NCBI GenBank assembly: GCA_030528325.1
Contig: JAUMZD010000016.1
Location: 1 to 64,000, forward strand
Direction of reading: 5' to 3'
From: Lautropia sp.
GTDB lineage: Bacteria; Pseudomonadota; Gammaproteobacteria; Burkholderiales; Burkholderiaceae_E
Length of the DNA stretch: 64,000 bases
Shown here: piece by piece, positions 41,764 through 54,950 of the stretch
Layout: every line of letters starts with the position of its first letter
How positions within the stretch are numbered: position 1 is the first letter of the stretch
The notes under the pieces: generated by a model
Database searches by the model: none
Told to the model about the DNA's origin: nothing
Seen by the model: only the letters and a program-made list of their open reading frames with translations
Made by a program: the position numbers and the translations under genes

Positions 41764-41863
41764 GCGGCAGGAGTCACGACGGCGAAAACCGGCCCCGCCG
41801 GGCACAAAAAATGGGCCGGCGCGGCCGGTTTGCAGCCCGCGACTTTCCTGCTGCCCAGGCTCC
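41764..41863 (+). repeat. MITE-like element, internally deleted copy
   Basis: gcggcaggagtcacgacggcgaaaaccggccccgccgggcacaaaaaatgggccggcgcggccggtttgcagcccgcgactttcctgctgcccaggctcc. Confidence 0.55.
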
Positions 41864-42003: not shown

Positions 42004-45000
42004 TCAGTGGCGCGTGCGGCTCACCGCCTGGCTGGCCGCATCCGTGCCCTGATGCAGCGGCCGTGCCGGCACGCCGCGCTTGCTCTCGAAGGAGAGGGCG
42101 GGCTGGCCGGTTTCCGTCTGCACGCTGGTGTTCTCACCCTGGGCCTGACGGGCCTTGACCTGCTCGATCACGGTGTTCGAGCAGCTGCCCTCGATGAAGT
42201 CGGCCCGGTGCAGCATGCCTTTCTTCGCGTCGATGAACAGGCTCTGGGCATCGCCTGCGCTCTGGGCGCTGCTGGTCACGAGCCGGCTCCTGCGGGGCAG
42301 GGTGCGGCCGTCGATCTTCAGCACATGGGTGCGTGGGCGCAGACCGCAGTGGCTGTACTTGCCGTGCGCATCCGTCACCATCCAGGTGCCGTTCTGCAGG
42401 TACAGGCGCACACCGGGGATGCCGAGTTCCTCGACATCCTTTTTGGCGTTGCCGTTGCAGTCGACGAAGACCTGACCGGCCACGCAGGCTTCCTCGCTGA
42501 AGATGCCGGCACGAACCTGCACCTTCCAGCGCGACTCGTTCGAGCAGGTCGAGGTGCCGGCCCCGTTGGGGGTCAGACATTCGACGTGCACGCGGTTCGT
42601 GCCATCGCCTTCCAGAGAGCCGACGCCCAGGCGCACGCGGTAGGTGATGATGACATCACCAGGCTGGTGCTGGCCGGGGGCCTTCAGGGACGGACTGCCC
42701 GAACCCTGCCCGTGAGAGGTGAAGTTGCCCGTGTGGAGGCTGCCGGTGCGGTTCCGTCCGTTCGTCGCACCCGGCTTTGCGGCAGCCGTTGCGTCTGTCC
42801 CGGTGCCCTCGATCCGGTCGAGCGTGAGCCGCAGTTCGCGCATGCCCTGTTGCCGGATCTCGACCAGTTGAGCCCCCTGCACGCGCACCGAGCCGGGCTC
42901 GAGCCGGAAGCCGGGCGGCAGCCGGTCGACGACCACCGGCGAGATGGCCGGGCCGGTGCCCTGGTTGCGGATGCGCAGCTGGTAGGTCACTAGATCCCCC
43001 AGCTCGGCGGCTTGGGTGTTGCCCCGTTTTTCGATCGTCAGGCGGGCTTCATCGGCGGGCACCGGGGTGTCGATACAGGCTTGGCTCGTCAGCGGAGCGG
43101 CATCGGGCGTGTCTGCCGAGTGGTTGCGCAGGCTGAGGCGGTTGAAGAGGCCCTTGCCTTCGGCGGCCTCGGTGCTTGCGCAGCGGTTGTTGGCCGTGCT
43201 GCTGCCGTAGGGCACGCGGATCTGGAAATCCATCAGGTAGAGATCCTCGGCGCCGATGGCAAGTGGCTGCTGCTCGGCCAGTGCCCAGCTGCCATCGTTG
43301 GCGGCGGTCACCGACAGGGGGCGGTCGTTCTTCAGGATGCGGGTGCCGATGATCTTCACGTCGGGGTCGAAGGCCGGGGTGTCGATCAGGGAATACAGGC
43401 CCGCGGCACCGGCCTCGTGCTTGACGCTCACGCGGTACTGTACCTGATAGTCACTGGGGGTTCCCGGTACCGGTTGAGGTTCGCCCACGACTTCCTTGAC
43501 CGCCTTCAGTGTGGCGGGAATGTCCTTCAGCTCGATGTGGCAGATGACGTTCTGATGATCGTGCAGCGTCAGCAGATCGTCTTCGAGTGTGCCTTCGGAG
43601 CAGACCCATTTGCCGGTGAGATAGCCTGGTAGTGAAGGCTTTTCCAGCCGGTAGGTACCCGGACGAACCGGGGCGACGGTGACGGGGCGCGTGCCGGTGA
43701 TGCCACTGATGGCGTGGTCGGGCCCCTGTGCACCCACCGTGGTGTCACGCGAGGTAGCGGTGCCGCCGTGGCTGTTGAGCACATCGAGCACGAGCGTCAG
43801 GCTGATGGGCTGGTCGGTGTTGCTGATCGTGCAGGTGGCGTGCTCTCCCTGGGCGAGGCTCAGCTGATGGCCGTCCAGGGTGCCGGCGTCGCACTCCCAG
43901 ACACTGGCCACATACTTGGGCAGCTCATCCTGCCGGAGCGCATAGGTGCCGGGCAGGACGGAAACACCCGTCACGGAGGCCTGCCCCGTGGTGCCAGACA
44001 TCGGGGTGGGGCCGTCGGCGTGCAGGACGAAGTGCTGGGGCGTGGCCTTGCCACCATGGCTGTTGGTCACGGTGGTGGTGAGCGTCAGACGGGCAGGCTC
44101 ATCATCGTAATGGATGGCGCAGACCGCATCGTCATCATGGCCCAGGTTCAGCGTGTACGGGGCAGGCGCTGCGCCGACCTCGGATTCTCCTGGTGTCGAG
44201 GCGTTGCTGGCTGCACCGTGCGGAACGGGTTGGCCGTTGACCGTGCACTGCCATGAACCCGCGCGATAGCCGGGCAGTGGCGTGGCGTTCAGCACATAGG
44301 GGCCCGTCGGCACCTGGATCAGCGTGACGGAGGGGGTACCGCTCGAGCCGTTCAGGGTGGAATCGCCCTGGCCGTTTCGGGCAGCGCTCAGCTGGATGTC
44401 CGAGACCGAACGCTGGCCACCATGGTCATTCGTCAAGGTGCTGACCAGTGTCAGACGTGGCGTGAGCCGGCTTTCGGTGAAGTGATAGCCCGTGGCCATG
44501 TCGCCGGTGCCGAGCGTGATCTGGGCAATGCTGCGGCCATCGGCCGAGACCTGTCCACCGGCGCTGCCGGCATGTGTCTTGCCCGGTTGCTTCGTCACCT
44601 CACTGACACGGGAAAGCGTGTAGGTGCCATCGAGCAGGCCGCCGAATGTCGTCAGCGGTGTGCCGCTGCAGTCTTCGCTGGTGTAGATCTGATGCTTCTG
44701 ATCCGGGGTGAAGGCAAAGTGGCCGTGCTCGTCGGTATGACGGGAGAGCGTGACGGGCTGCCCCTTGCTGTTGGTGCCGCTCAGGCGCACACACTGGCCG
44801 GGCAGGGCCGTGTCCTCGGTGTCGAAGACATTGTCCTGGGTGCCGTCCACGAAGACCCGCCCGGACAGGCCGCTCATCTGACGGACGATCCTGACGTGCA
44901 GGTCCGACTGGGATTCGACATACAGCAGCGGACTGCTCTCGTCAGGCGGGCGCGTGTCGACGTGATTGGCAAAGATGTTGCCATCATGCGACTTGAGCGG

Positions 45001-48000
45001 GTCGGATTGCAACGAGACTTTCACCTCATAAGGGATATTGGCCTGCAACAGACGCAGCGAGGGGCTGATACGGATGGCCGTGCTCTCACCGATGGCGGCG
45101 GGGCAGCCCTCCGTGCCGAATTCGCTCGCCAGACACCACCGGGTGCTCCCACCTGTCAGCGCATTGCTGGCGTCACGCGGGTCGTTGTGAATGTCCTTCG
45201 GGTTGCGGTTCGTGTAGTAGATCTTGGCCGTGGCATCCCGTGCGGGCGGGGTGATGGACACCAGCTGATAGGCGCCTGGCTCGAAAGAGGAGGCCGGGTG
45301 ACGTGCCGTGAACGACAGGGCCGGGCGTGATTCTCCATCTCCCACGAAAGGCAGCACATCGATCATGTCCGGCACGTTCGGTGCGCTGATTTCCTGCCCC
45401 ATGGATACGAAGGTCAGCGTGTAGTCGAAAGGATCCCCGGGTTCGATCCGTGTGCGGGAGGTGCTTTTTTCCAGCAGAAAACCCGGAGGGGTCTGCACGG
45501 TGGTGTTTTTGTACGCCCCTTTCTCGCAGACCACTTCCTGATTGTCGGTCAGACGTGTCATCACCCAGGTCTGGCTGCCGGCATGATATCGGCAGTCGCC
45601 TTCGTAGTCGTTGGCACCGCCGCTGATGGCAACCAGGTTCCTGACCTGCGAACCGTTGATGAGATGGTTGCTCAGGCGTGCCCGGAAAGTGATGGGGGGC
45701 AGTTTGGCGCCCTCGTCGCCATCGTGACCGAAATGCGGCAACTGGTCCGGGAAAGTCCAGGTCAGCGTCGTCATGCCGGTGTCGGGGGTGTTTTCCTGCA
45801 CGACGGGTTCCATCGGCTGGCCGCCGACGGTGGCGGTGCCTTCGAGGTAATAGGTGCCCTTGGGCAGCAGGTCCGTCACGGTGACCGTGTCGCGTAGCTG
45901 CGGATAGAGGGTGCTGTGGCGGGGCACGATCTCATAGGTCAGCACGCTGCCGGCCGGTACCGGCGTCTTCTCGTCGTTGGCCGCGGCTGGTTCGATGATC
46001 GTCTTGCTCACGCGTGACACCGTGCGCGTCGGGATCACCATCAGGTGGTCACGTTGTTTCGTGACATCCATCGGAAAGGAGGTGGAGGTGATTTCGGCGC
46101 GGTTCCTGACGATGGTGCCGTCGGGAATCTCATCACCGGCCCGCCGGGTGGCCGGGCTTGGCGACAAAACCTCGATCGTGCTGCCCCAGGTTCGTCTCAT
46201 GACCAGGCCGGGGATGTTCAGTACGGCAATGCCCTGTGGGTTGAGGCGATTCAGCTGGGCGCGCACATAGACCAGCTTGCCGGCTTCCTCGGCCTTTTGA
46301 GCCGTATCGAACCACTGGATGTCGGGGTTCTGGCAACTGGCCGATGAATACGCCGAGCTGCCATGAGACGAATACTGGCCGATGACTTCGTAAGGCGACC
46401 GCGAGGTGTCGGTCGATGCAAAGTAGGGGGAAGTGCCAGCGGGTGGGACACCATAGCTGTATTTGATGACGGCTTTCGGATCTTTCAGGTAGCCAGGCAG
46501 GATGCTTGCGGACAACCTGTTCACGTCGACGTCGAAAGCACTCCGGTCGAGAATGTCGCAAAGCAGCACCTCACTGATCTGCTGCGTCCCCGTGTTCGAA
46601 AATCGCAGGATGGATCGTACCGACTGCGTGGGCGCGATGTGATTGACGATTTCGTCACTCAGAATGGCAGGGTCTTTCGGGGCGTGTAGCGGTGCGGTGA
46701 CACCCGTGTCGGGAACGAAGGCTTTCTGGGCTTCTCCCTTGCCTTGTGCCTTGATGTCGTGAGAGGTCACGTGACGGTCGTGTTCAAGGTTGGGCTTCGG
46801 TTGCGCGATGGCCTGCCCGCTGATCGAGGTTCCCTGAATCTGTGCGAAGCGGAAAGGATGGTTCACCACGACGTTGTCCGGGTAGGTGGCCAGCTCCGTC
46901 CATAGCACCAGCACCTTGTTTGCCACCCAGAACTCATCAGCCGGCAGGGGCGAATTGGTACGTGACAATTGGGTGGGATAGTGCGCCAGCCGGGTGTCGA
47001 CACCCGACAGCGAGATCGTCACGGCGTTTCGTGTGGCGCCGGGCTTCACCTGGCAGTCCCCGCCATTGGCCACGGTATATTTATCCGGTGCCGGCGATGG
47101 GCCATGGTCGGTGACGCGGTTATAGGTGTTGACGCGACCGCCGCCGAACAGACCAGGGGCATCCTGGGCGAAATTCCGGCCGCTGCCGCAGCCATCGGCA
47201 TAGCTGCCTTTCGCATCAGGATCCCAATCCAGGACACGCACCGAATCGGGATAGCCGCTGATGTCCAGCGTGATCTCGACGGGCTGGTTGGGGTCGAGTT
47301 GCTCGACGCCTTTTTTCCCGCCCTTGTCCGGGTTCTGCGCAAAGAGACCGATCATCGGTCGGTGGAACACCCCGTCCTTCCGCTCGGGGCCCGGGCCCGG
47401 GCCGTTTTCCACCTGAACACCATAGGCAGCAGGCACGCCGTTGTGGCTCATCTGGACCTTCACGTCATAGAAGGGGGCTGCCGTGACTTTCAGGGCATCG
47501 GGCAATGTCGCAGGTGCCTTGCCTGCTGGCACCTTGTCGGACTTCACGTCGATGGCAGGGGTTTCAAACGTGGTGTCGTGACGGACGTCGCCCCGAACCG
47601 TTGCATTGAAAACCAGTGACCGGGTGCCGGAGCCCGTGAAGTCCTCCATCCTGCAGGTGATGATCTGTCCGTCGGCCGACAGCTGCGAGCCAGGCTGGCG
47701 ACACTGTGTCGGCATCGACCAGTCGGCAATGGGTTTGCCGTTTACCTGAGGCAGGGTCAGCTTGATGACGGGATTCGTGTCGGCACCGTTGGTGCTGACG
47801 GCCACCTCGTAACCCACTGCGTCATGGGTGCGCACGATGCCGTTCTTGGCGCCGGCATCGAAGCCCGGGCCTGTCCGGGTCGTGTTGAAGGTGGGAGTGC
47901 CATCATACTGAACCGAGTAGGTCACCTGATTGATCATGGCCTGGGCCGGCAGGCTCCAGCAGGTGGCGGCCAGCAATGGCAGCACCCAGCGGACAGGCTT

Positions 48001-48039
48001 GAAAGGGGCTTGAGTCGACGGGAAAGGCTGGACGCGCAT
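42004..48039 (-). CDS. Giant secreted repeat protein 1 (about 2010 aa): DUF11-like and prealbumin/SdrD-B-like tandem repeats, with a conserved ~250-aa C-terminal module
   Basis: Signal peptide MRVQPFPSTQAPFKPVRWVLPLLAATCWSLPAQA. About 90-aa repeats (LTLVSTLTNDHGG...; LTLTTTVTNSHGGKATP...), a DUF11-like motif GDLVTYQLRIRNQGTGPAISPVVVDRLPPGF, and the C-terminal VFVDCNGNAKKDVEELGIPGVRLYLQNGTWMVTDAHGKY. Confidence 0.75.
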   Translation of the reverse strand: MRVQPFPSTQAPFKPVRWVLPLLAATCWSLPAQAMINQVTYSVQYDGTPTFNTTRTGPGFDAGAKNGIVRTHDAVGYEVAVSTNGADTNPVIKLTLPQVNGKPIADWSMPTQCRQPGSQLSADGQIITCRMEDFTGSGTRSLVFNATVRGDVRHDTTFETPAIDVKSDKVPAGKAPATLPDALKVTAAPFYDVKVQMSHNGVPAAYGVQVENGPGPGPERKDGVFHRPMIGLFAQNPDKGGKKGVEQLDPNQPVEITLDISGYPDSVRVLDWDPDAKGSYADGCGSGRNFAQDAPGLFGGGRVNTYNRVTDHGPSPAPDKYTVANGGDCQVKPGATRNAVTISLSGVDTRLAHYPTQLSRTNSPLPADEFWVANKVLVLWTELATYPDNVVVNHPFRFAQIQGTSISGQAIAQPKPNLEHDRHVTSHDIKAQGKGEAQKAFVPDTGVTAPLHAPKDPAILSDEIVNHIAPTQSVRSILRFSNTGTQQISEVLLCDILDRSAFDVDVNRLSASILPGYLKDPKAVIKYSYGVPPAGTSPYFASTDTSRSPYEVIGQYSSHGSSAYSSASCQNPDIQWFDTAQKAEEAGKLVYVRAQLNRLNPQGIAVLNIPGLVMRRTWGSTIEVLSPSPATRRAGDEIPDGTIVRNRAEITSTSFPMDVTKQRDHLMVIPTRTVSRVSKTIIEPAAANDEKTPVPAGSVLTYEIVPRHSTLYPQLRDTVTVTDLLPKGTYYLEGTATVGGQPMEPVVQENTPDTGMTTLTWTFPDQLPHFGHDGDEGAKLPPITFRARLSNHLINGSQVRNLVAISGGANDYEGDCRYHAGSQTWVMTRLTDNQEVVCEKGAYKNTTVQTPPGFLLEKSTSRTRIEPGDPFDYTLTFVSMGQEISAPNVPDMIDVLPFVGDGESRPALSFTARHPASSFEPGAYQLVSITPPARDATAKIYYTNRNPKDIHNDPRDASNALTGGSTRWCLASEFGTEGCPAAIGESTAIRISPSLRLLQANIPYEVKVSLQSDPLKSHDGNIFANHVDTRPPDESSPLLYVESQSDLHVRIVRQMSGLSGRVFVDGTQDNVFDTEDTALPGQCVRLSGTNSKGQPVTLSRHTDEHGHFAFTPDQKHQIYTSEDCSGTPLTTFGGLLDGTYTLSRVSEVTKQPGKTHAGSAGGQVSADGRSIAQITLGTGDMATGYHFTESRLTPRLTLVSTLTNDHGGQRSVSDIQLSAARNGQGDSTLNGSSGTPSVTLIQVPTGPYVLNATPLPGYRAGSWQCTVNGQPVPHGAASNASTPGESEVGAAPAPYTLNLGHDDDAVCAIHYDDEPARLTLTTTVTNSHGGKATPQHFVLHADGPTPMSGTTGQASVTGVSVLPGTYALRQDELPKYVASVWECDAGTLDGHQLSLAQGEHATCTISNTDQPISLTLVLDVLNSHGGTATSRDTTVGAQGPDHAISGITGTRPVTVAPVRPGTYRLEKPSLPGYLTGKWVCSEGTLEDDLLTLHDHQNVICHIELKDIPATLKAVKEVVGEPQPVPGTPSDYQVQYRVSVKHEAGAAGLYSLIDTPAFDPDVKIIGTRILKNDRPLSVTAANDGSWALAEQQPLAIGAEDLYLMDFQIRVPYGSSTANNRCASTEAAEGKGLFNRLSLRNHSADTPDAAPLTSQACIDTPVPADEARLTIEKRGNTQAAELGDLVTYQLRIRNQGTGPAISPVVVDRLPPGFRLEPGSVRVQGAQLVEIRQQGMRELRLTLDRIEGTGTDATAAAKPGATNGRNRTGSLHTGNFTSHGQGSGSPSLKAPGQHQPGDVIITYRVRLGVGSLEGDGTNRVHVECLTPNGAGTSTCSNESRWKVQVRAGIFSEEACVAGQVFVDCNGNAKKDVEELGIPGVRLYLQNGTWMVTDAHGKYSHCGLRPRTHVLKIDGRTLPRRSRLVTSSAQSAGDAQSLFIDAKKGMLHRADFIEGSCSNTVIEQVKARQAQGENTSVQTETGQPALSFESKRGVPARPLHQGTDAASQAVSRTRH

Positions 48040-48164
48040 GGGGCAGGCTCTGTCAGGATGATGGTGGGAGGCGCTGCGCATCCGCTGCTCTGACCGTTTC
48101 GTGCCCGATGTCGGTCACGCGATGGACTGGCTGGATGGGGCATGCGCTACCTTTGCCCATTCTT

Positions 48165-51100
48165 CTATCGGCCCTGAAGGGAAGGCGGGGTGATGTGATG
48201 GCCGGGAGGCCGGGAATGATCAATGGCGGGAGGCGCGTCGTTTCCTGTGACATAGGCCCTTTCCATCACGCCCGTCTTGCTGTCGAAAGCCTGGCCTGTC
48301 TGCCCACGCTGTCCGGTCTTGTGCTGAACGGAGGTGTTGCTACCCTGGGCCTGGCGGGCCCTGACCTGCTCGATCACGGTGTTCGAGCAGCTGCCCTCGA
48401 TGAAGTCGGCCCGATGCAGCATGCCTTTCTTTGCATCGATGAACAGGCTTTGGGCATCGCCTGCGCTCTGGGCGCTGCTGGTCACGAGCCGGCTCCTGCG
48501 GGGCAGGGTGCGGGGGTCGATCTTCAGCACATGGGTGCGTGGGCGAAGGCCGCAGTGGCTGTACTTGCCGTGGGCGTCGGTCACCATCCAGGTGCCGTTC
48601 TGCAGGTACAGGCGCACACCGGGGATGCCAGGTTCATTGACATCCTTGATGGCGTTGCCATTGCAGTCGACATAGACCTGACCGGCCAGGCAGGTCTCCT
48701 CGCTGAAGATGCCGGCTCGAACCTGCACCTGCCAGCGCGATTCGTTCGAGCAGGCTTCGGCCGTCTGGCTGTCGGGCGAGGGAAGACAGTTCACCTGCGC
48801 ACGGTTGATGCCATCGCCTTCCATGGCACCGGTGCCCACGCGAACCCGATAGCTGATCACCACCTCGCCCTGCCGGGGCGCAGTCACCTGGCCGGGCGTC
48901 GATGGCCGGGCCTGATCCTGTCTGCCTGCATCCTGACTGCCCGCCTGCCCGATCCGGTCAAGTTCGATGCCGAACTGGTTTTGCGCCGTGCGCGTGACAC
49001 GCAGCAGTCGTGCGCCCTGCACCCTGACCGAAGCCGTGTCGAGCCGGAAGCCTGGCGGGAGCTGGTCGATCACCACCGGCGAGCGGGCAGGGCCATCGCC
49101 GAGGTTACGAATGTGCAGACGATAGCTCAGCCAGTCACCGATGTCGGCCGAACGTGTGGTGCTGCTCTTCTTCAGGCGCAGGGCGGCCCGATAGTGCGGC
49201 ACCGGGGTGTCGGCACAGGCGCTCGCCTCGATGAGGTGCCCGGCATCGGCCGCACGGTCGGCGGCCGGCCCGCCCAGCTGGTGTACCGACAGCCGTGCCA
49301 TGTGTGCCAGCCCGTGCCCGGGGCGCCCGCCCTCGCAGCGGTCGTTGGCGGTGTTGCTGCCCGGCGGGACACGAACCCGTACCCTCAGCAGATAGACATC
49401 CTGCCCGTCGATGCCGAGGGGATGGCGGCTGGCGAGCCGCCAGCGAGGTCGTCCTTCCACGGCGGGCAGTGTCGTGATGCCGATGGGCTGATCATCACGC
49501 CTGGCCTGCACCGAGACGATCCGTGCATCCTCATCGAAGCCGGGCTGGGTGACGAGATCATAGTAGCCATCTGCTCCGCCCTGGTGACTGACCTCGATCC
49601 GGTAATCGATGTCGTGTTCCTGGGGACTGCCCGGTACCGGGCGGATGCTGCCGCTCACCGTTTGCGTCAGCTGCATCTCGGCCGGTATCCGCTTGAAACT
49701 GATCCGGCAGCCCAGGTTCTCGGTCAGCCGCAGGCGGTTGCCTGGCAGCGCAAGAGGACGATTGTCGGCGCCGTGGCACATCAGTCGGCTGTGATAACCA
49801 CGGCGTACCGGTACCAGCAGTTCGTATTCCCGGTCGGGCCTCAGCCCTTCGCTGACGGCCTCGCCCGGACGCAGGCGAATCCGCTGCGCCGGGGCGTCGA
49901 CCGGAATCAGCTGAAGCACCATCGCATCGGCCTCAGGGGCCGGATGGGTCGTGCCATCGGCTTCTTCCACCATCACCCCATCCAGCGCCACGCGCAAGGG
50001 GGCGTCGGTGTGGCTGGTGCGGCAGGTGCCCACATCACCATGACCGAGGCTGATCGTCGGCTCGGGCATGGACGGCGACTCGGTGCGGCCGTCGGCACGC
50101 CGGATCTCGCACTGCCATGGCCCGGGCTGAAAATGTGCCACAGGCAGGCTGAGGAGCTGATAGCGTCCGGCTGGCAGGGCAACGCCGGTCACGCCGGGGG
50201 CCCCGCTGGCGCCGGAGAGCAGCGGCTCATCGTGGCCCAGAGGACGTGCCTGCAGGATGAAGTCTTCCGGCCTGGCCTGCCGGCCGTGACGGATGTCGAG
50301 CGTGCTGACGAGGGACAGGCGCGCGGGCTGGTCCTCGACGACGAGGCTGCAGCTGGCCTTGTCCCCATGGCTGAGGTGAAGGCTGTCGCCTTGCCGGTTC
50401 TGATCGTTGATCCGGCATTGCCAGGTGCCGGTCTGATAGCCGGGCGGGGCTTCATGGCTCAGGTGGTAGCGTCCTGCCGGCACTGGTCGGGCCGTGAGGC
50501 TCTGGCCGTCCCCTGTCCCGTCGAGGATCGGGGGCTGCCCGGGGGCATCCGCCGGCATCAGGCGCAGCCGGACGTGGGCGGGTGTGGCGGTTCCGCCATG
50601 ACGGTTCATGACCGTGGCACGCAGCGTCAGCTGTGGCGGCACCATCGATTCGGTGAAATGATAGCCATGGGCCGCGGTGCCGGCCGTCAGCACGATGTCC
50701 TCGATACGCTGCGTCTCGGCGCGGCCGCCGGCGGTGCCAGGGGACAGTTTGCCGGGCTGCCGGTGTTCGCCGGCCGTGTTCGCCGGGCGGCTCAGCGTGT
50801 AATGACCGGCCAGCAGGCCCACGAAATCTGGCAGCGGCGTGCCGGTGCAGCCATGACCCGGGTGAATCCTGTCCGGGGCGCCGGTCACGAAACCGAAGTG
50901 GCCCTGTGCATCCGTCAGGGTCGAATACCGGAGTGGGTGCCCGTTGTGGCTTTGCCCCGTGAGATCGATGCACTGGCCGCTGATCGGGGTGTCTTCGGCA
51001 TCGAGCCGGTTGTCCTGCTGAAGGTCGATGAAACTGCGTCCGCTCAGCGCAGCCGGCTGGAAACTGACCTCGACCACCTGTGTGCCCACCGAGCGAACGA

Positions 51101-54100
51101 AGGGCAGGGGGCTGGCGGGCTGGCTCGGGCCGGCGTTGACGTGGGTGGCAAAACGGCTGCCGTGGGCGGCGAGTGCCGGATCGGTCTGCCATTGCAGGCG
51201 AATGTCATAGGGCTGGTCGGGGGGCAGCAGGGGCAGTGCCGGGCGGATGCGCACCGCGGTGCTGTCGGCAAGGCTGGCCGGGCAGCCCGCCGAGCCGAAC
51301 TGGTGCGCGAGGCACCATCGCGTGCTGCCATCGGGCAGCCGGTTGCTGGCGTGTCGGGGGTCGGGGTGGATCTCGCGCGCCGGGTGGCGGGTGTAGAGCA
51401 CCTCGGCTGCCGGGTCGTTGGCCGGTGGTTGCACGCCCGTCAGCCGCAGTGCCCCCGGTGTGAAGCGGGAGGCCGGCTGGCGAGCCTGGAAGCCGGTGGC
51501 CGGGTTGTCTTCACCATCGCCCACGAAAGGCAGGATCTGGATCACCTCGGGCAGATCGGTGGCATGCACCGCCACGCCGTTGGCCTGAAAGCGGATCTGT
51601 GTCTCGAAGGCATCGCCCGCATCGATCCGGGGCTGGGGCGCCTGGTGTTCGAGCACGAAGCCCGAGGGCGTCAGCGTGCGCACCGTGACCGCCGAGGCTT
51701 TGGCGCAGCCGTCGTCAGCCAGCGTGATGGGGTCGGGCGTGCAATCGGCTTCGGTGTCGTGCGGGCCGCCGCTGATGGTGGCGAGGCTTCGCAGCAGACT
51801 GCCATTGCGAACGTGCTGTCCGACCCGGGACTCGAACTCGATGGGGGGCAGCAGGGCTTCATTTTTTGTGTTGGCGCCCAGGAAGGGCGTGCGTGAGGAC
51901 AAGGTCCAGAGCAGGGTGGTCTGGGCGCTGTCATGGGTGCCGGGGATGATCCGGGGCTCCGCTGGCTGTCCGTCCAGCGTGGCAGAACCGTTCACATACT
52001 GCAAGCCGGCGGGCAGCATGGTATGGATCGTCACCGTGCCGGGCGTGGGCAGCATGGTGCTGCTGTAACGGCCCTGCAACCGGTGACGCAGCGTGGTGCC
52101 GGCGGGCACCGGGGTCTGGTTCACGGCGCTGTCGGGGGAGACCCAGGTGTGCGTGAGGCGTGAGACCGTCTGCGTGTTGATGACACGCAGATGGTCGCGA
52201 TGGGCGGCCAGCCTGCCGGTGTCGGGCAGGGTGGTGGAGCCGATCTCGGCGCGGCCGCGGATGATCGTGTTGGCGGCGATCGGTGTGCCTTGCCGGCGGC
52301 TGCCCTGGCCGGCCGGCGTCTCCACCTGGATGTCGGCCGCCCAGGTGTCACGCAGGATCAGGCCGCGGATCTGGAGTCCGAAGCGGTGGTTCGGTTTCAG
52401 TTGCGGCAGAAAGCCCCGCACATACACCAGTCCATTGGAGCCCTGGGCGTGCTGTGCCTGGCTGAACCAGCTGATATCCGGGCCGTCGCAGCGGGCGCGA
52501 CTGTAGGCGGACTGGCCTTCGCTTGCGCGCAGGCCCGGCGGGTCGTATTCACTAGGCGCACTGTCGGTCGACGTGAAATGGGGTGAGGCGGCGTTCCGAA
52601 CCCCATACTGGATGCTGCCGCCATGCGATTGCCCTGTCAGCCTGGCGCTGAACCGGGGGCCGATCTCGAAGGCGGTGCGGTCGATGATCTCGCACAGATA
52701 GGCGTCGTCCTGAGCCGCCGTGCCATTGTTGAAATAATCAAGATCCACGCCTACCGTCTGGCCTGGCCGCATCTGGTTGACGACGCTGGCACCGGCGGAG
52801 GGATCGGCCTGCGTGGCTTTGGGGGGCGGCTGCGAGGCGTCCGGCACGAAGACGCGCGAGGTGGCCGAGGAGGCCCGTTTGGCGCGCACATAGCGCAGGC
52901 TGCCATCATGGCCGGGGTCGATCTGCAATGGCTGGCCGGTGACGGAGCGGCCGCTCACTTGGCTGACGCGCAGCAGGTGTTCGATCTCGACGTTGTCCGG
53001 GTAGTCGCTGAGTGGTGTCCACAACACGAGGGTCTTGTTGGCCACCCAGTATTCGCCGCGTGGAATGGGGCCGCCCGGGGTGCTGCTTTTCTCGGTGGGC
53101 ACATGGGCGAGCGACGTGTCGATGCCGGTGATCGAGACACGCACATGGTGGCGGTCGGCCGACAGGGTCTGGCAGTCGCCGCCGTTCGCGACCGAGGTGT
53201 TCCGGTTGCTGGCGCGGGGGCCGTGATCCTGCACGTAGGGCTCATGGATCATGTTCCCGACCCAGCGGCTGGGGCGACCGTTGTTGGGGCTCCCACAGCC
53301 GTCCCTGAAGGAACCGGTGGGCAAATCGTTGGCTGGCTGGCCGGCCGCATGGCGCCAGTCATCGAGCCGTACCGAGGGCGGAAAGCCGCTCGTGTCGACC
53401 TCGATCTCCACTGGATGTCGGGCATCGAGTTGTTCGGTACCGATCAGTCCGCCATGATGCGGGTTGCGCACGAGCAGCCCGAGCATGATCCGGTGGTAGA
53501 GGCCGTCTTCCCGGTTCGGCCCGCTGGTGGGGGCGGCGGCCGACCCATTTCGGGTGGGCAGGTGCAGCCGGACATCATAGAAAGGGGCAGCACTGACCGT
53601 GAGCGCTTGTGCCTGTATCGGCACGGCCTGGGGTGGCGAGCCGTTCGCCGGAACGATCTGTACCGTGGGTGGTGCGATCCGGTCGCCATGCCGGGCGCCG
53701 CGTGTCACCTGGGCTTCGAGATAATGGGTGGTGGTCTGGCCGGCGGCCACCGTGCCGAGCTGGCAGCTCAACGTCCGCCGGTCGTCCGACAGGCCAGAAT
53801 CCTGCCCGCCAGGACCGCGCTCGCAGAAGGTGGGCAGGTAGGCCCATGCCACGGGGGCTTGCCCGGCCGTGGCAGGTGGTAGCGTCAGCACGACACGGAG
53901 CGCCTGTTCGGTCTGCTCGGGTTGAAGGCTCAGCCGATACTGGAAGCGGTCGAAACTGCGAACGATCCCGTTGTGGGCGTTGCTGTCCAGGCCCGGGCCA
54001 TCCTGCGCATCGAAGGGACTGGCGCCGTCGCTGTGGTTGCTCAGGACGGCCCGCATGCCGGCAGATGCTTCGGTGGCAAATAGTGCGCTCAAGGCCAGCA

Positions 54101-54191
54101 TCGCACCGAGCAGATGCTGGCGGTGCCACCGGCCCGGAAGCCTGTGTCGGATGGCGGACAGCACGGGCGGGAAATGCATGGGCCGGTTCAT
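48165..54191 (-). CDS. Giant secreted repeat protein 2 (2008 aa), paralog of proteins 1 and 3
   Basis: MNRPMHFPPVLSAIRHRLPGRWHRQHLLGAMLALSALFATEASA, a similar repeat organisation, and the C-terminal module VYVDCNGNAIKDVNEPGIPGVRLYLQNGTWMVTDAHGKYSHCGLRPRTHVLKID. Confidence 0.75.
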   Translation of the reverse strand: MNRPMHFPPVLSAIRHRLPGRWHRQHLLGAMLALSALFATEASAGMRAVLSNHSDGASPFDAQDGPGLDSNAHNGIVRSFDRFQYRLSLQPEQTEQALRVVLTLPPATAGQAPVAWAYLPTFCERGPGGQDSGLSDDRRTLSCQLGTVAAGQTTTHYLEAQVTRGARHGDRIAPPTVQIVPANGSPPQAVPIQAQALTVSAAPFYDVRLHLPTRNGSAAAPTSGPNREDGLYHRIMLGLLVRNPHHGGLIGTEQLDARHPVEIEVDTSGFPPSVRLDDWRHAAGQPANDLPTGSFRDGCGSPNNGRPSRWVGNMIHEPYVQDHGPRASNRNTSVANGGDCQTLSADRHHVRVSITGIDTSLAHVPTEKSSTPGGPIPRGEYWVANKTLVLWTPLSDYPDNVEIEHLLRVSQVSGRSVTGQPLQIDPGHDGSLRYVRAKRASSATSRVFVPDASQPPPKATQADPSAGASVVNQMRPGQTVGVDLDYFNNGTAAQDDAYLCEIIDRTAFEIGPRFSARLTGQSHGGSIQYGVRNAASPHFTSTDSAPSEYDPPGLRASEGQSAYSRARCDGPDISWFSQAQHAQGSNGLVYVRGFLPQLKPNHRFGLQIRGLILRDTWAADIQVETPAGQGSRRQGTPIAANTIIRGRAEIGSTTLPDTGRLAAHRDHLRVINTQTVSRLTHTWVSPDSAVNQTPVPAGTTLRHRLQGRYSSTMLPTPGTVTIHTMLPAGLQYVNGSATLDGQPAEPRIIPGTHDSAQTTLLWTLSSRTPFLGANTKNEALLPPIEFESRVGQHVRNGSLLRSLATISGGPHDTEADCTPDPITLADDGCAKASAVTVRTLTPSGFVLEHQAPQPRIDAGDAFETQIRFQANGVAVHATDLPEVIQILPFVGDGEDNPATGFQARQPASRFTPGALRLTGVQPPANDPAAEVLYTRHPAREIHPDPRHASNRLPDGSTRWCLAHQFGSAGCPASLADSTAVRIRPALPLLPPDQPYDIRLQWQTDPALAAHGSRFATHVNAGPSQPASPLPFVRSVGTQVVEVSFQPAALSGRSFIDLQQDNRLDAEDTPISGQCIDLTGQSHNGHPLRYSTLTDAQGHFGFVTGAPDRIHPGHGCTGTPLPDFVGLLAGHYTLSRPANTAGEHRQPGKLSPGTAGGRAETQRIEDIVLTAGTAAHGYHFTESMVPPQLTLRATVMNRHGGTATPAHVRLRLMPADAPGQPPILDGTGDGQSLTARPVPAGRYHLSHEAPPGYQTGTWQCRINDQNRQGDSLHLSHGDKASCSLVVEDQPARLSLVSTLDIRHGRQARPEDFILQARPLGHDEPLLSGASGAPGVTGVALPAGRYQLLSLPVAHFQPGPWQCEIRRADGRTESPSMPEPTISLGHGDVGTCRTSHTDAPLRVALDGVMVEEADGTTHPAPEADAMVLQLIPVDAPAQRIRLRPGEAVSEGLRPDREYELLVPVRRGYHSRLMCHGADNRPLALPGNRLRLTENLGCRISFKRIPAEMQLTQTVSGSIRPVPGSPQEHDIDYRIEVSHQGGADGYYDLVTQPGFDEDARIVSVQARRDDQPIGITTLPAVEGRPRWRLASRHPLGIDGQDVYLLRVRVRVPPGSNTANDRCEGGRPGHGLAHMARLSVHQLGGPAADRAADAGHLIEASACADTPVPHYRAALRLKKSSTTRSADIGDWLSYRLHIRNLGDGPARSPVVIDQLPPGFRLDTASVRVQGARLLRVTRTAQNQFGIELDRIGQAGSQDAGRQDQARPSTPGQVTAPRQGEVVISYRVRVGTGAMEGDGINRAQVNCLPSPDSQTAEACSNESRWQVQVRAGIFSEETCLAGQVYVDCNGNAIKDVNEPGIPGVRLYLQNGTWMVTDAHGKYSHCGLRPRTHVLKIDPRTLPRRSRLVTSSAQSAGDAQSLFIDAKKGMLHRADFIEGSCSNTVIEQVRARQAQGSNTSVQHKTGQRGQTGQAFDSKTGVMERAYVTGNDAPPAIDHSRPPGHHITPPSLQGR

Positions 54192-54197
54192 GGCGCA

Positions 54198-54950
54198 TCA
54201 GTGCCGGGTATGGCCAATCCGCTGATTGGCGCTGTCGGTACCCTGCTGGCGGGGCCGTGCCGTCACGCCCGTCTTGCTGTCGAAGGACAGCGCGGGCTGA
54301 GCGGCTTCCGTCTGCACGCTGGTGTTCTCACCCTGGGCCTGACGGGCTTTCACCTGCTCGATCACGGTGTTCGAGCAGCTGCCCTCGATGAAGTCGGCCC
54401 GGTGCAGCATGCCTTTCTTCGCGTCGATGAACAGGCTCTGGGCATCGCCTGCGCTCTGGGCGCTGCTGGTCACGAGCCGGCTCCTGCGGGGCAGGGTGCG
54501 GCCGTCGATCTTCAGCACATGGGTGCGTGGGCGCAGACCGCAGTGGCTGTACTTGCCGTGCGCATCCGTCACCATCCAGGTGCCGTTCTGCAGGTACAGG
54601 CGCACACCGGGGATGCCGAGTTCCTCGACATCCTTTTTGGCGTTGCCGTTGCAGTCGACGAAGACCTGACCGGCCACGCAGGCTTCCTCGCTGAAGATGC
54701 CGGCACGAACCTGCACCTTCCAGCGCGACTCGTTCGAGCAGGTCGAGGTGCCGGCCCCGTTGGGGGTCAGACATTCGACGTGCACGCGGTTCGTGCCATC
54801 GCCTTCCAGAGAGCCGACGCCCAGGCGCACGCGGTAGGTGATGATGACATCACCAGGCTGGTGCTGGCCGGGGGCCTTCAGGGACGGGCTGCCCGAACCC
54901 TGCCCGTGAGGGGCGAAGGTACCCGTGTGGAGGCTGCCGGCGCGGTTCCG
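54198..54950 (-). repeat. About 0.75-kb near-identical direct repeat shared with 42004..42760 (3' ends of giant genes 3 and 1); a diverged copy lies at 48165..48900
   Basis: The antisense track ORFs 42134..42580 and 54328..54774 translate to identical 148-aa strings except for 2 residues. Confidence 0.7.

Follow-up and report, generated by a model that had tools for sequence, protein, structure and literature searches.

Tandem giant adhesin genes of a Lautropia species share a near-identical subterminal segment that is probably maintained by gene conversion

In PMC3960876, the 3′ segments of the Helicobacter pylori genes babA and babB, and of homA and homB, are described as most alike within a strain, while their 5′ and middle parts follow orthology. 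That account attributes the pattern to RecA-dependent intragenomic gene conversion, citing Pride & Blaser 2002, and mentions chimeric genes as well as variation in copy number or locus (PMC3960876). Here we analyse a comparable arrangement in a 64,000-nucleotide (nt) stretch of DNA from Lautropia sp. (contig JAUMZD010000016.1, positions 1 to 64,000), hereafter called the window. Its minus strand carries one gene for an outer-membrane protein, g4, followed by three paralogous giant genes, g3, g2 and g1, whose products resemble fibrillar adhesins (Table 1). A segment of ~0.7 kb, close to the 3′ end of g1 and g3 and partly shared by g2, appears to have been kept near-identical by repeated gene conversion between these tandem genes, the encoded module being by inference a docking piece; we put the probability of this reading at roughly 85%.

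The 3′ segments of the bab and hom genes are the closest precedent, and the Lautropia case fits it on every testable feature. The proteins are built differently, however: Bab and Hom carry their own C-terminal β-barrel and are encoded at dispersed loci, whereas the Lautropia genes are ~6 kb long and lie in tandem. The homogenised part in Lautropia encodes a soluble CnaA/CnaB-type module, the barrel is a separate protein (g4) and the extreme 3′ end is excluded. Another tandem family is sdrC-sdrD-sdrE of Staphylococcus, whose adhesins have variable ligand-binding N-termini, CnaB-like B repeats and a shared C-terminal anchor region; this Gram-positive locus relies on LPXTG/sortase anchoring, whereas the Lautropia adhesins have neither LPXTG nor a hydrophobic C-terminal segment.

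The stalk of the Lautropia proteins places them close to a third described group. DUF11 has been renamed CLIPPER: it is a CnaA-like, isopeptide-stabilised stalk domain of fibrillar adhesins, including those of Gram-negatives (PMC12617251). Like other CLIPPER adhesins, such as B9T28_05395 of Acinetobacter silvestris (PDB 9IFR), the Lautropia proteins are giant and combine a signal peptide with a CLIPPER/SpaA_2/SdrD_B stalk (PMC12617251). The Acinetobacter adhesin ends in its own OmpA-like anchoring domain; in contrast, the Lautropia adhesins end in a module made of CLIPPER, CnaB, a helix and a tail, and would rely on a separate outer-membrane protein of ~1150 residues. Gene conversion in adhesin families is ordinary, textbook matter; this adhesin family and its presumed outer-membrane partner are uncharacterised.

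The last ~1.4 kb of g1 can be aligned to that of g3 without a gap, the offset being 12194 nt. This alignment contains a tract of 712 nt with 98.46% identity (11 mismatches), compared with 65% for the whole genes, which bears out an earlier note on this DNA that had placed the nucleotide identity across the C-terminal module above 98% and above that of the rest of the paralogs. The tract contains a run of 536 nt without a mismatch, located in g1 between 152 and 687 nt ahead of the stop codon. In 2000 permutations of the variable sites, the longest identical run expected by chance was 32 nt with the whole gene as background, and 63 nt when the more similar last 2.1 kb served as background.

The same note had described the near-identical regions as the 3′ ends of the two genes. 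The near-identity stands but the location does not: the last 108 nt of g1, coding for the tail, are only ~70-78% identical to g3, and the tract is subterminal rather than the extreme 3′ end. The note had reached its conclusion through antisense translations of 42134..42580 and 54328..54774, reported to differ by two residues. They do in that frame, with 2 of 447 nt different, but the frame is not that of the gene; the conclusion about the nucleotides is unaffected.

The region is a mosaic. Between the tract and a second near-identical stretch lies a 53-nt island with ~30 mismatches, which codes for a part of the CLIPPER domain that varies (QGAQLVEIRQQGMRELRLTL in g1, QNARAASITQGGSRELRIQL in g3). 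It could be a patch from another donor, or a loop held different by selection. The edges of the tract fade gradually, with scattered mismatches. The middle gene, g2, does hold the diverged copy that had been noted before: 420 nt of it match g1 at 92.4%, and beyond them the identity falls to background level. The G+C content at third codon positions is slightly higher in the tract (0.85 vs 0.78), which we do not take as evidence for GC-biased conversion.

Synonymous divergence (dS) was estimated by Nei-Gojobori counting on a codon alignment of the three paralogs. Between g1 and g3 it amounts to 1.23 in the first 1350 alignment columns and 0.84 in the next 530, drops to 0.014 within the tract and to 0 in its 130-codon core, and returns to 0.59 in the last 54 codons, which form the tail. 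Third codon positions of this pair are 96-100% identical in the tract vs 40-55% elsewhere. For g1 and g2, dS is 0.235 in the core vs 1.0-1.26 elsewhere, and the N-terminal parts of the paralogs are synonymously saturated (dS ~1.2, with a nonsynonymous divergence, dN, of ~0.55-0.66). The collapse of dS is bounded on both sides within the gene, as would be expected of bab-type conversion.

Purifying selection on an essential C-terminal module could in principle keep the copies alike with no exchange of sequence. No other part of the family is as well conserved as the module, which alone is retained between genera of Beta- and Gammaproteobacteria and is always C-terminal, with 43-50% amino-acid identity and 30 invariant columns in an alignment of 47 sequences. 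Selection on the protein cannot, however, hold synonymous sites, and in the tract these sites hardly differ; moreover, orthologs from another species are 13% apart in nucleotides in the very segment where the paralogs are identical. We detected no sequence-specific DNA or RNA function of the tract. Gene conversion, and not constraint alone, is therefore the reading we adopt, and selection by itself is extremely improbable. The earlier note had invoked ongoing gene conversion or strong constraint on the module: the dS values and the greater closeness of paralogs than of orthologs speak for the former, and conservation across genera for the latter.

Relatives were collected by a module-profile scan with one genome per species, from which the best 80 of 454 were retrieved. 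Among these best 80, tandem arrays are confined to Lautropia loci, and loci of other genera have one gene each. One locus, L003 (3..16633), comes from another Lautropia species (metagenome-assembled genome, MAG, S30M_Sa_16) and occupies the orthologous chromosomal site: the flank past its third giant gene matches the flank of the window that carries the NUDIX and PHO4 genes, at 82-88% nucleotide identity. Compared over the N-terminal and middle parts of the proteins, g3 is the ortholog of its gene A (85-88% amino-acid identity), g1 is the counterpart of gene B (66-68%) and g2 is closest to gene C (68-77%). Of the three paralogs, g2 is the most divergent.

In these N-terminal and middle parts, identity between paralogs is 49-73% vs 85-88% for the orthologs g3 and A. 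In the tract, paralogs are the closer ones: the amino-acid identity is 100% for g1 and g3 and 93% for A and B of L003 (100% in the core), and orthologs reach only 81-83%. Genes A and B of L003 share an exact run of their own, independent of that in the window: it extends over 527 nt, 89-615 nt ahead of the stop codon, and lies at nearly the same position. Paralogs of one genome are thus closer than orthologs in this segment while the other segments follow orthology, as described for bab.

A 402-nt core was compared among 31 Lautropia copies, and the identity matrix groups them by genome. Between genomes the identity does not exceed 87%. Within genomes it is 100% and 93% in the window, 95% in Meta-D_MAG_57 (three contigs), 98% in L. 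dentalis KCOM 2505 and 97-100% when matching metagenome contigs are included, 91-94% in S30M_Sa_78 (three contigs) and 87-92% for three of the copies in S28M_Sa_6. The tandem copies of the L. dentalis isolate are ~99% identical over ~2.1 kb, and their tract ends ~190 nt ahead of the stop codon. These comparisons, which extend to six Lautropia genomes besides that of the window, indicate that concerted evolution is recurrent and arose independently in several Lautropia lineages. For a comparison of strains, we found no sequence of the same species: a metagenome scan yielded at most 81% amino-acid identity, and the best genome match was 84%.

Exact repeats of ~530 nt are also typical of assembler collapse, in which two similar repeats are merged into one edge of the graph that is then written out twice. 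The window lies within a 68,866-nt contig of a short-read MAG, and L003 is a SPAdes-style NODE contig. Such a collapse nonetheless needs copies that are already near-identical, and it sits poorly with the gradual edges, the scattered mismatches, the mosaic island and a g2 copy kept distinct at 92%. The pattern recurs in five further genomes, among them the isolate L. dentalis KCOM 2505, in which the copies lie on a 2.07-Mb contig and retain their mismatches; this tract in an isolate speaks against a pure assembly artefact, which we consider highly unlikely.

The number of tandem genes varies between Lautropia species: there is one in L008 and L013, two in L007, L009, L014 and L018, and three in the window and L003. 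The order also differs, being g3(A)-g2(C)-g1(B) in the window and A-B-C in L003. The junction that leads from a tail into the C-type gene has been conserved, yet it is joined to different N-terminal parts, which suggests that exchanges in or near the tract occurred in the past of the locus. The B-type pair of the window and L003 is also much less alike than the A-type pair (66-68% vs 85-88% amino-acid identity), and these differences may stem from unequal losses in an ancestral array that was larger. A perfect direct repeat of 536 nt, 12.2 kb apart, is a mechanistically reasonable and adequate substrate for deletion or duplication.

Tandem direct repeats, the two gene orders and the C-type junction on different N-terminal parts would all suit a single reciprocal crossover, or a recent partial duplication by unequal crossing-over, that left a chimeric gene without any conversion. 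Crossovers in or near the tract probably did take place during the history of the locus. After such an event, however, everything downstream would match, and here the tail has diverged and the sequence past the stop codon is unrelated. Excision of a circle between the tracts, followed by its reintegration into the C-type gene, was also considered for the order in L003 and rejected: it predicts tail types that are not observed. Because the tail downstream would not be divergent after one crossover alone, we read the segment as a conversion tract with two boundaries, and regard a crossover or duplication on its own as improbable.

Searches against Pfam and NCBIfam find the same set of domains in the three paralogs: two to three SpaA_2 domains, one CLIPPER/DUF11 and one SdrD_B near the C-terminus. 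In g1 the order is a Sec-type signal peptide, an N-terminal half blank in Pfam, three SpaA_2 domains, CLIPPER/DUF11, SdrD_B and the tail. The translations begin with hydrophobic signal-like segments that end in AQA or ASA. The first ~1300 residues of the three adhesins (listed at 42004..47900) gave no match in Pfam or NCBIfam; the N-terminal two-thirds are presumably the ligand-binding part. The scores are 35-37 bits for DUF11 (PF01345; cut-off 24.6), 45-72 bits for TIGR01451 (cut-off 24), 86-186 bits for SpaA_2 and 37-54 bits for SdrD_B. As long proteins with signal-like N-termini, stalk domains and a CLIPPER/DUF11 domain above its curated threshold, they have the make-up of CLIPPER fibrillar adhesins.

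The tract codes for the second half of the terminal CLIPPER domain with a low-complexity insert, for the SdrD_B/CnaB-like domain and for a helix, VIEQVKARQAQG. We modelled residues 1661-2025 of g1 with AlphaFold2 from a 47-sequence alignment (mean predicted local distance difference test, pLDDT, of 79). The model consists of a CnaA-like sandwich broken by the disordered insert, a CnaB/SdrD_B-like sandwich that also takes in ~60 residues past the Pfam SdrD_B match, the single helix and a disordered tail. Its top PDB matches are the Gram-positive pilins and adhesins SSA1633, BcpA, UafA, EbpB and SpaD, and the CLIPPER structure 9IFR. The insert (~42640..42790; g1 residues ~1765-1812) comprises ~45 residues rich in Gly, Ser, Thr and Ala, GTGTDATAAAKPGATNGRNRTGSLHTGNFTSHGQGSGSPSLKAPGQHQP. 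In g1 and g3 it breaks up the last CLIPPER domain and lies inside the homogenised tract; it is predicted to be disordered (pLDDT below 50) and is mostly absent from g2.

Across genera, only the last 345-360 residues can be aligned; the rest differs completely in its domains: Collimonas has repeats of DUF7933, whereas Solilutibacter has DUF7927, DUF7507 and SpaA_4. When 1.84 billion representative proteins were searched, full-length module matches formed the extreme C-terminus of proteins of 1,300-4,000 residues. The 32,316 matches of the profile search with alignment A1 are inflated by generic CLIPPER repeats and were used only for the C-terminal placement. Nearly all module proteins in the database (P0001-P0120) are pieces of 125-381 residues on short contigs. 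Because many matches are 150-380 residues long, we considered the module as an autonomous small gene, for example the 373-residue open reading frame (ORF) that follows a 2205-residue gene in L001, and discarded the idea: such short proteins have no signal peptide and start inside a domain, and are thus fragments or split gene calls.

The tails of g1 and g3 are predicted to be disordered, and bear a family-wide linear motif, [FL]x[SG]K...QQGTDxANQ, kept from Lautropia to Xanthomonas in the form …QPALxFESK…PQQGTDSANQ…R. Its first element, [FL]x[SG]K, is present in 85 of 95 tails, and Q[GA]TDxA[NDQ]Q in 53 of the 95. In each of the three genomes that we studied closely, the conversion tract does not include the tail.

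The hydrophilic tails (e.g. ...GQPALSFESKRGVPARPLHQGTDAASQAVSRTRH) contain no sortase/LPXTG or exosortase/PEP-CTERM signal, and no transmembrane or hydrophobic segment. Nor do the proteins show the hallmarks of type V secretion: the adhesin chain has no barrel of its own, as autotransporters and inverse autotransporters do, and there is no two-partner secretion (TPS) domain paired with an Omp85/POTRA protein. They also differ from type I substrates of the RTX/LapA-like kind, having Sec-like N-termini, no RTX matches and no genes for an ABC transporter, membrane fusion protein (MFP) or TolC among the neighbours on the downstream side.

The outer-membrane protein g4 has an invasin/intimin-like Ig domain at residues ~76-187 and a β-barrel predicted to have 32 or more long strands. 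It has no match to a curated family and no close solved structure; its own family, of ~1100-1250 residues, counts more than 1600 homologs. Such homologs occur in 58 of 85 module loci. In 45 loci, from the Oxalobacteraceae-type genera (Collimonas, Oxalicibacterium and Undibacterium), from most of the Stenotrophomonas, Pseudoxanthomonas and Xanthomonas loci and from others, the gene starts 69-554 nt downstream of the module match; in 13 it lies upstream (Lautropia, Lysobacter and other Lysobacteraceae). Loci with a member of this family beside a giant CLIPPER adhesin include L008, L013, L018, L027, L030 and L040, among others. The remaining 27 are mostly short contigs, or loci whose giant gene or genes extend as far as the 10-kb flank; in the case of L003, the same contig is known to carry the gene for the outer-membrane protein.

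In three loci of Lysobacteraceae/Stenotrophomonas, a gene of the peptidoglycan-binding OmpA family stands between the outer-membrane protein and adhesin genes (L001 2129..3238, L019 571..1854 and L029 128..1201), and a few homologs of the outer-membrane protein (P0191, P0200) have an OmpA domain fused at their C-terminus. These cases hint at a three-part anchoring apparatus. A near relative, L087 (567..7831, Logan SRR24338666), encodes an outer-membrane protein with 93% amino-acid and 89% nucleotide identity to g4, next to a first adhesin with only 71% amino-acid identity to g3; the adhesin therefore changes far more quickly than the protein presumed to be its partner.

We propose that g4 is the partner of the adhesins. 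A single outer-membrane protein gene accompanies one to three adhesin genes that bear the same module at the same end, and for this reason we infer that the module docks or anchors the adhesin; a role in secretion or anchoring, as suggested in the earlier note, would fit the finding that the adhesin genes are linked almost everywhere to a gene for a dedicated outer-membrane protein. It is possible, although we advance this only tentatively, that the tract encodes the docking module of a two-component display system spread across Beta- and Gammaproteobacteria. One component would be a giant CLIPPER adhesin, invariant only in its C-terminal CLIPPER, CnaB, helix and 'FESK...QQGTDSANQ' tail, the other the outer-membrane protein of ~1150 residues, and conversion would keep the adhesins compatible with it. 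A search of the literature returned no description of a giant CLIPPER adhesin paired with a large outer-membrane protein, and nothing on adhesins of Lautropia.

The G+C content of the window is ~64%, and the minus-strand run g4-g3-g2-g1 was resolved by the G+C content at each codon position. The gaps between g4 and g3, g3 and g2, and g2 and g1 measure 85, 6 and 83 nt, and the run looks like a single operon of a Lautropia species. A terminator-like hairpin (41828..41816) is the probable end of the transcription unit. Past g1 come genes for a NUDIX protein, a PHO4 phosphate transporter, an S-(hydroxymethyl)glutathione dehydrogenase and an esterase, and farther away queA, tgt and secDF, housekeeping genes unrelated to the adhesins. 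By exact sequence, SecF corresponds to the database record MDO4682483.1 and g4 to MDO4682499.1, annotated as 'hypothetical protein'.

Table 1. Positions in the window of the adhesin locus and of the segments compared in the text.
Feature	Position	Strand	Description	Basis
g1, giant adhesin-like	42004..48081	-	2025 aa (longest ORF start)	ORF list, translation, Pfam/NCBIfam, codon-position GC
g2, middle paralog	48165..54191	-	2008 aa	ORF list, translation, Pfam
g3, first paralog after the outer-membrane protein gene	54198..60305	-	2035 aa	ORF list, translation, Pfam
g4, outer-membrane protein	60391..63906	-	1171 aa; signal peptide, Ig domain, predicted barrel	
Putative conversion tract in g1	42112..42823	-	712 nt; g1 residues ~1754-1990; 98.5% identical to g3	
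Core of exact identity in g1	42158..42693	-	536 nt	
Putative conversion tract in g3	54306..55017	-	Counterpart of 42112..42823; exact core 54352..54887	
Divergent island	42824..42876	-	53 nt; g3 counterpart 55018..55070	
Second near-identical segment	42877..42969	-	93 nt, 4 mismatches; g3 counterpart 55071..55163	
Putative older or partial conversion tract in g2	48336..48755	-	92.4% identical to g1 42130..42549	
Non-homogenised C-terminal tail of g1	42004..42111	-	g3 counterpart 54198..54305; g2 tail 48165..~48330	
Terminator-like GC hairpin and T-run	41816..41828	-	~180 nt past the g1 stop	Consensus match only

Taken as a mechanism, gene conversion in this locus might proceed as follows. The operon would produce one large outer-membrane barrel together with three giant paralogs of the fibrillar adhesin type, which all have a Sec signal and are presumably displayed on the cell surface. 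Purifying selection on the module would retain stretches of identity that are long enough to seed recombination between the tandem copies. Non-reciprocal homologous recombination, probably dependent on RecA as proposed for bab and hom, would then copy the segment and wipe out synonymous differences too. The partners in the latest event would have been g1 and g3, and g2 would have taken part in one that was older or shorter; the tract would be kept from growing by heterology of the tail, the variable CLIPPER loop, the stalk upstream and the variable N-terminal parts. If the module is the part near the cell by which each adhesin docks or is anchored so as to work with the single shared g4, its homogenisation would be at least tolerated and perhaps favoured, as it keeps three adhesins compatible with one partner.

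Several points weigh against this account. Conversion is read here from the sequence pattern. On a short-read MAG contig, repeat collapse could inflate the exact 100%, although it could not create the similarity itself. The docking role is proposed from conservation and synteny, and the tail, which is the strongest bearer of a motif, stays outside the homogenised tract. Furthermore, the modules of the window and L003 are 81-83% identical in amino acids, and the outer-membrane proteins of the two fall in the same 90% cluster: the module is less conserved than its presumed partner, which weakens a strict argument from co-adaptation. Homogenisation could also be a neutral by-product of tandem arrangement and constraint.

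The evolutionary signature marks ~240 of the ~2000 adhesin residues as the constant, system-specific part. The exact repeats explain why adhesin loci are fragmented in short-read assemblies and in gene calls, and they predict variation in the copy number and order of adhesin genes in an abundant oral commensal. Of greater interest as a lead is the unnamed pairing of a giant CLIPPER adhesin with a large barrel, which recurs in many genera: Lautropia, Lysobacter, Stenotrophomonas, Xanthomonas, Pseudoxanthomonas, Collimonas, Undibacterium and Oxalicibacterium. Little is understood of how Gram-negatives bring Sec-exported fibrillar adhesins across the outer membrane and attach them to it, and the pairing offers a candidate that can be tested. 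If the docking reading is true, conversion would keep each adhesin fitted to its single partner while the binding regions diversify.

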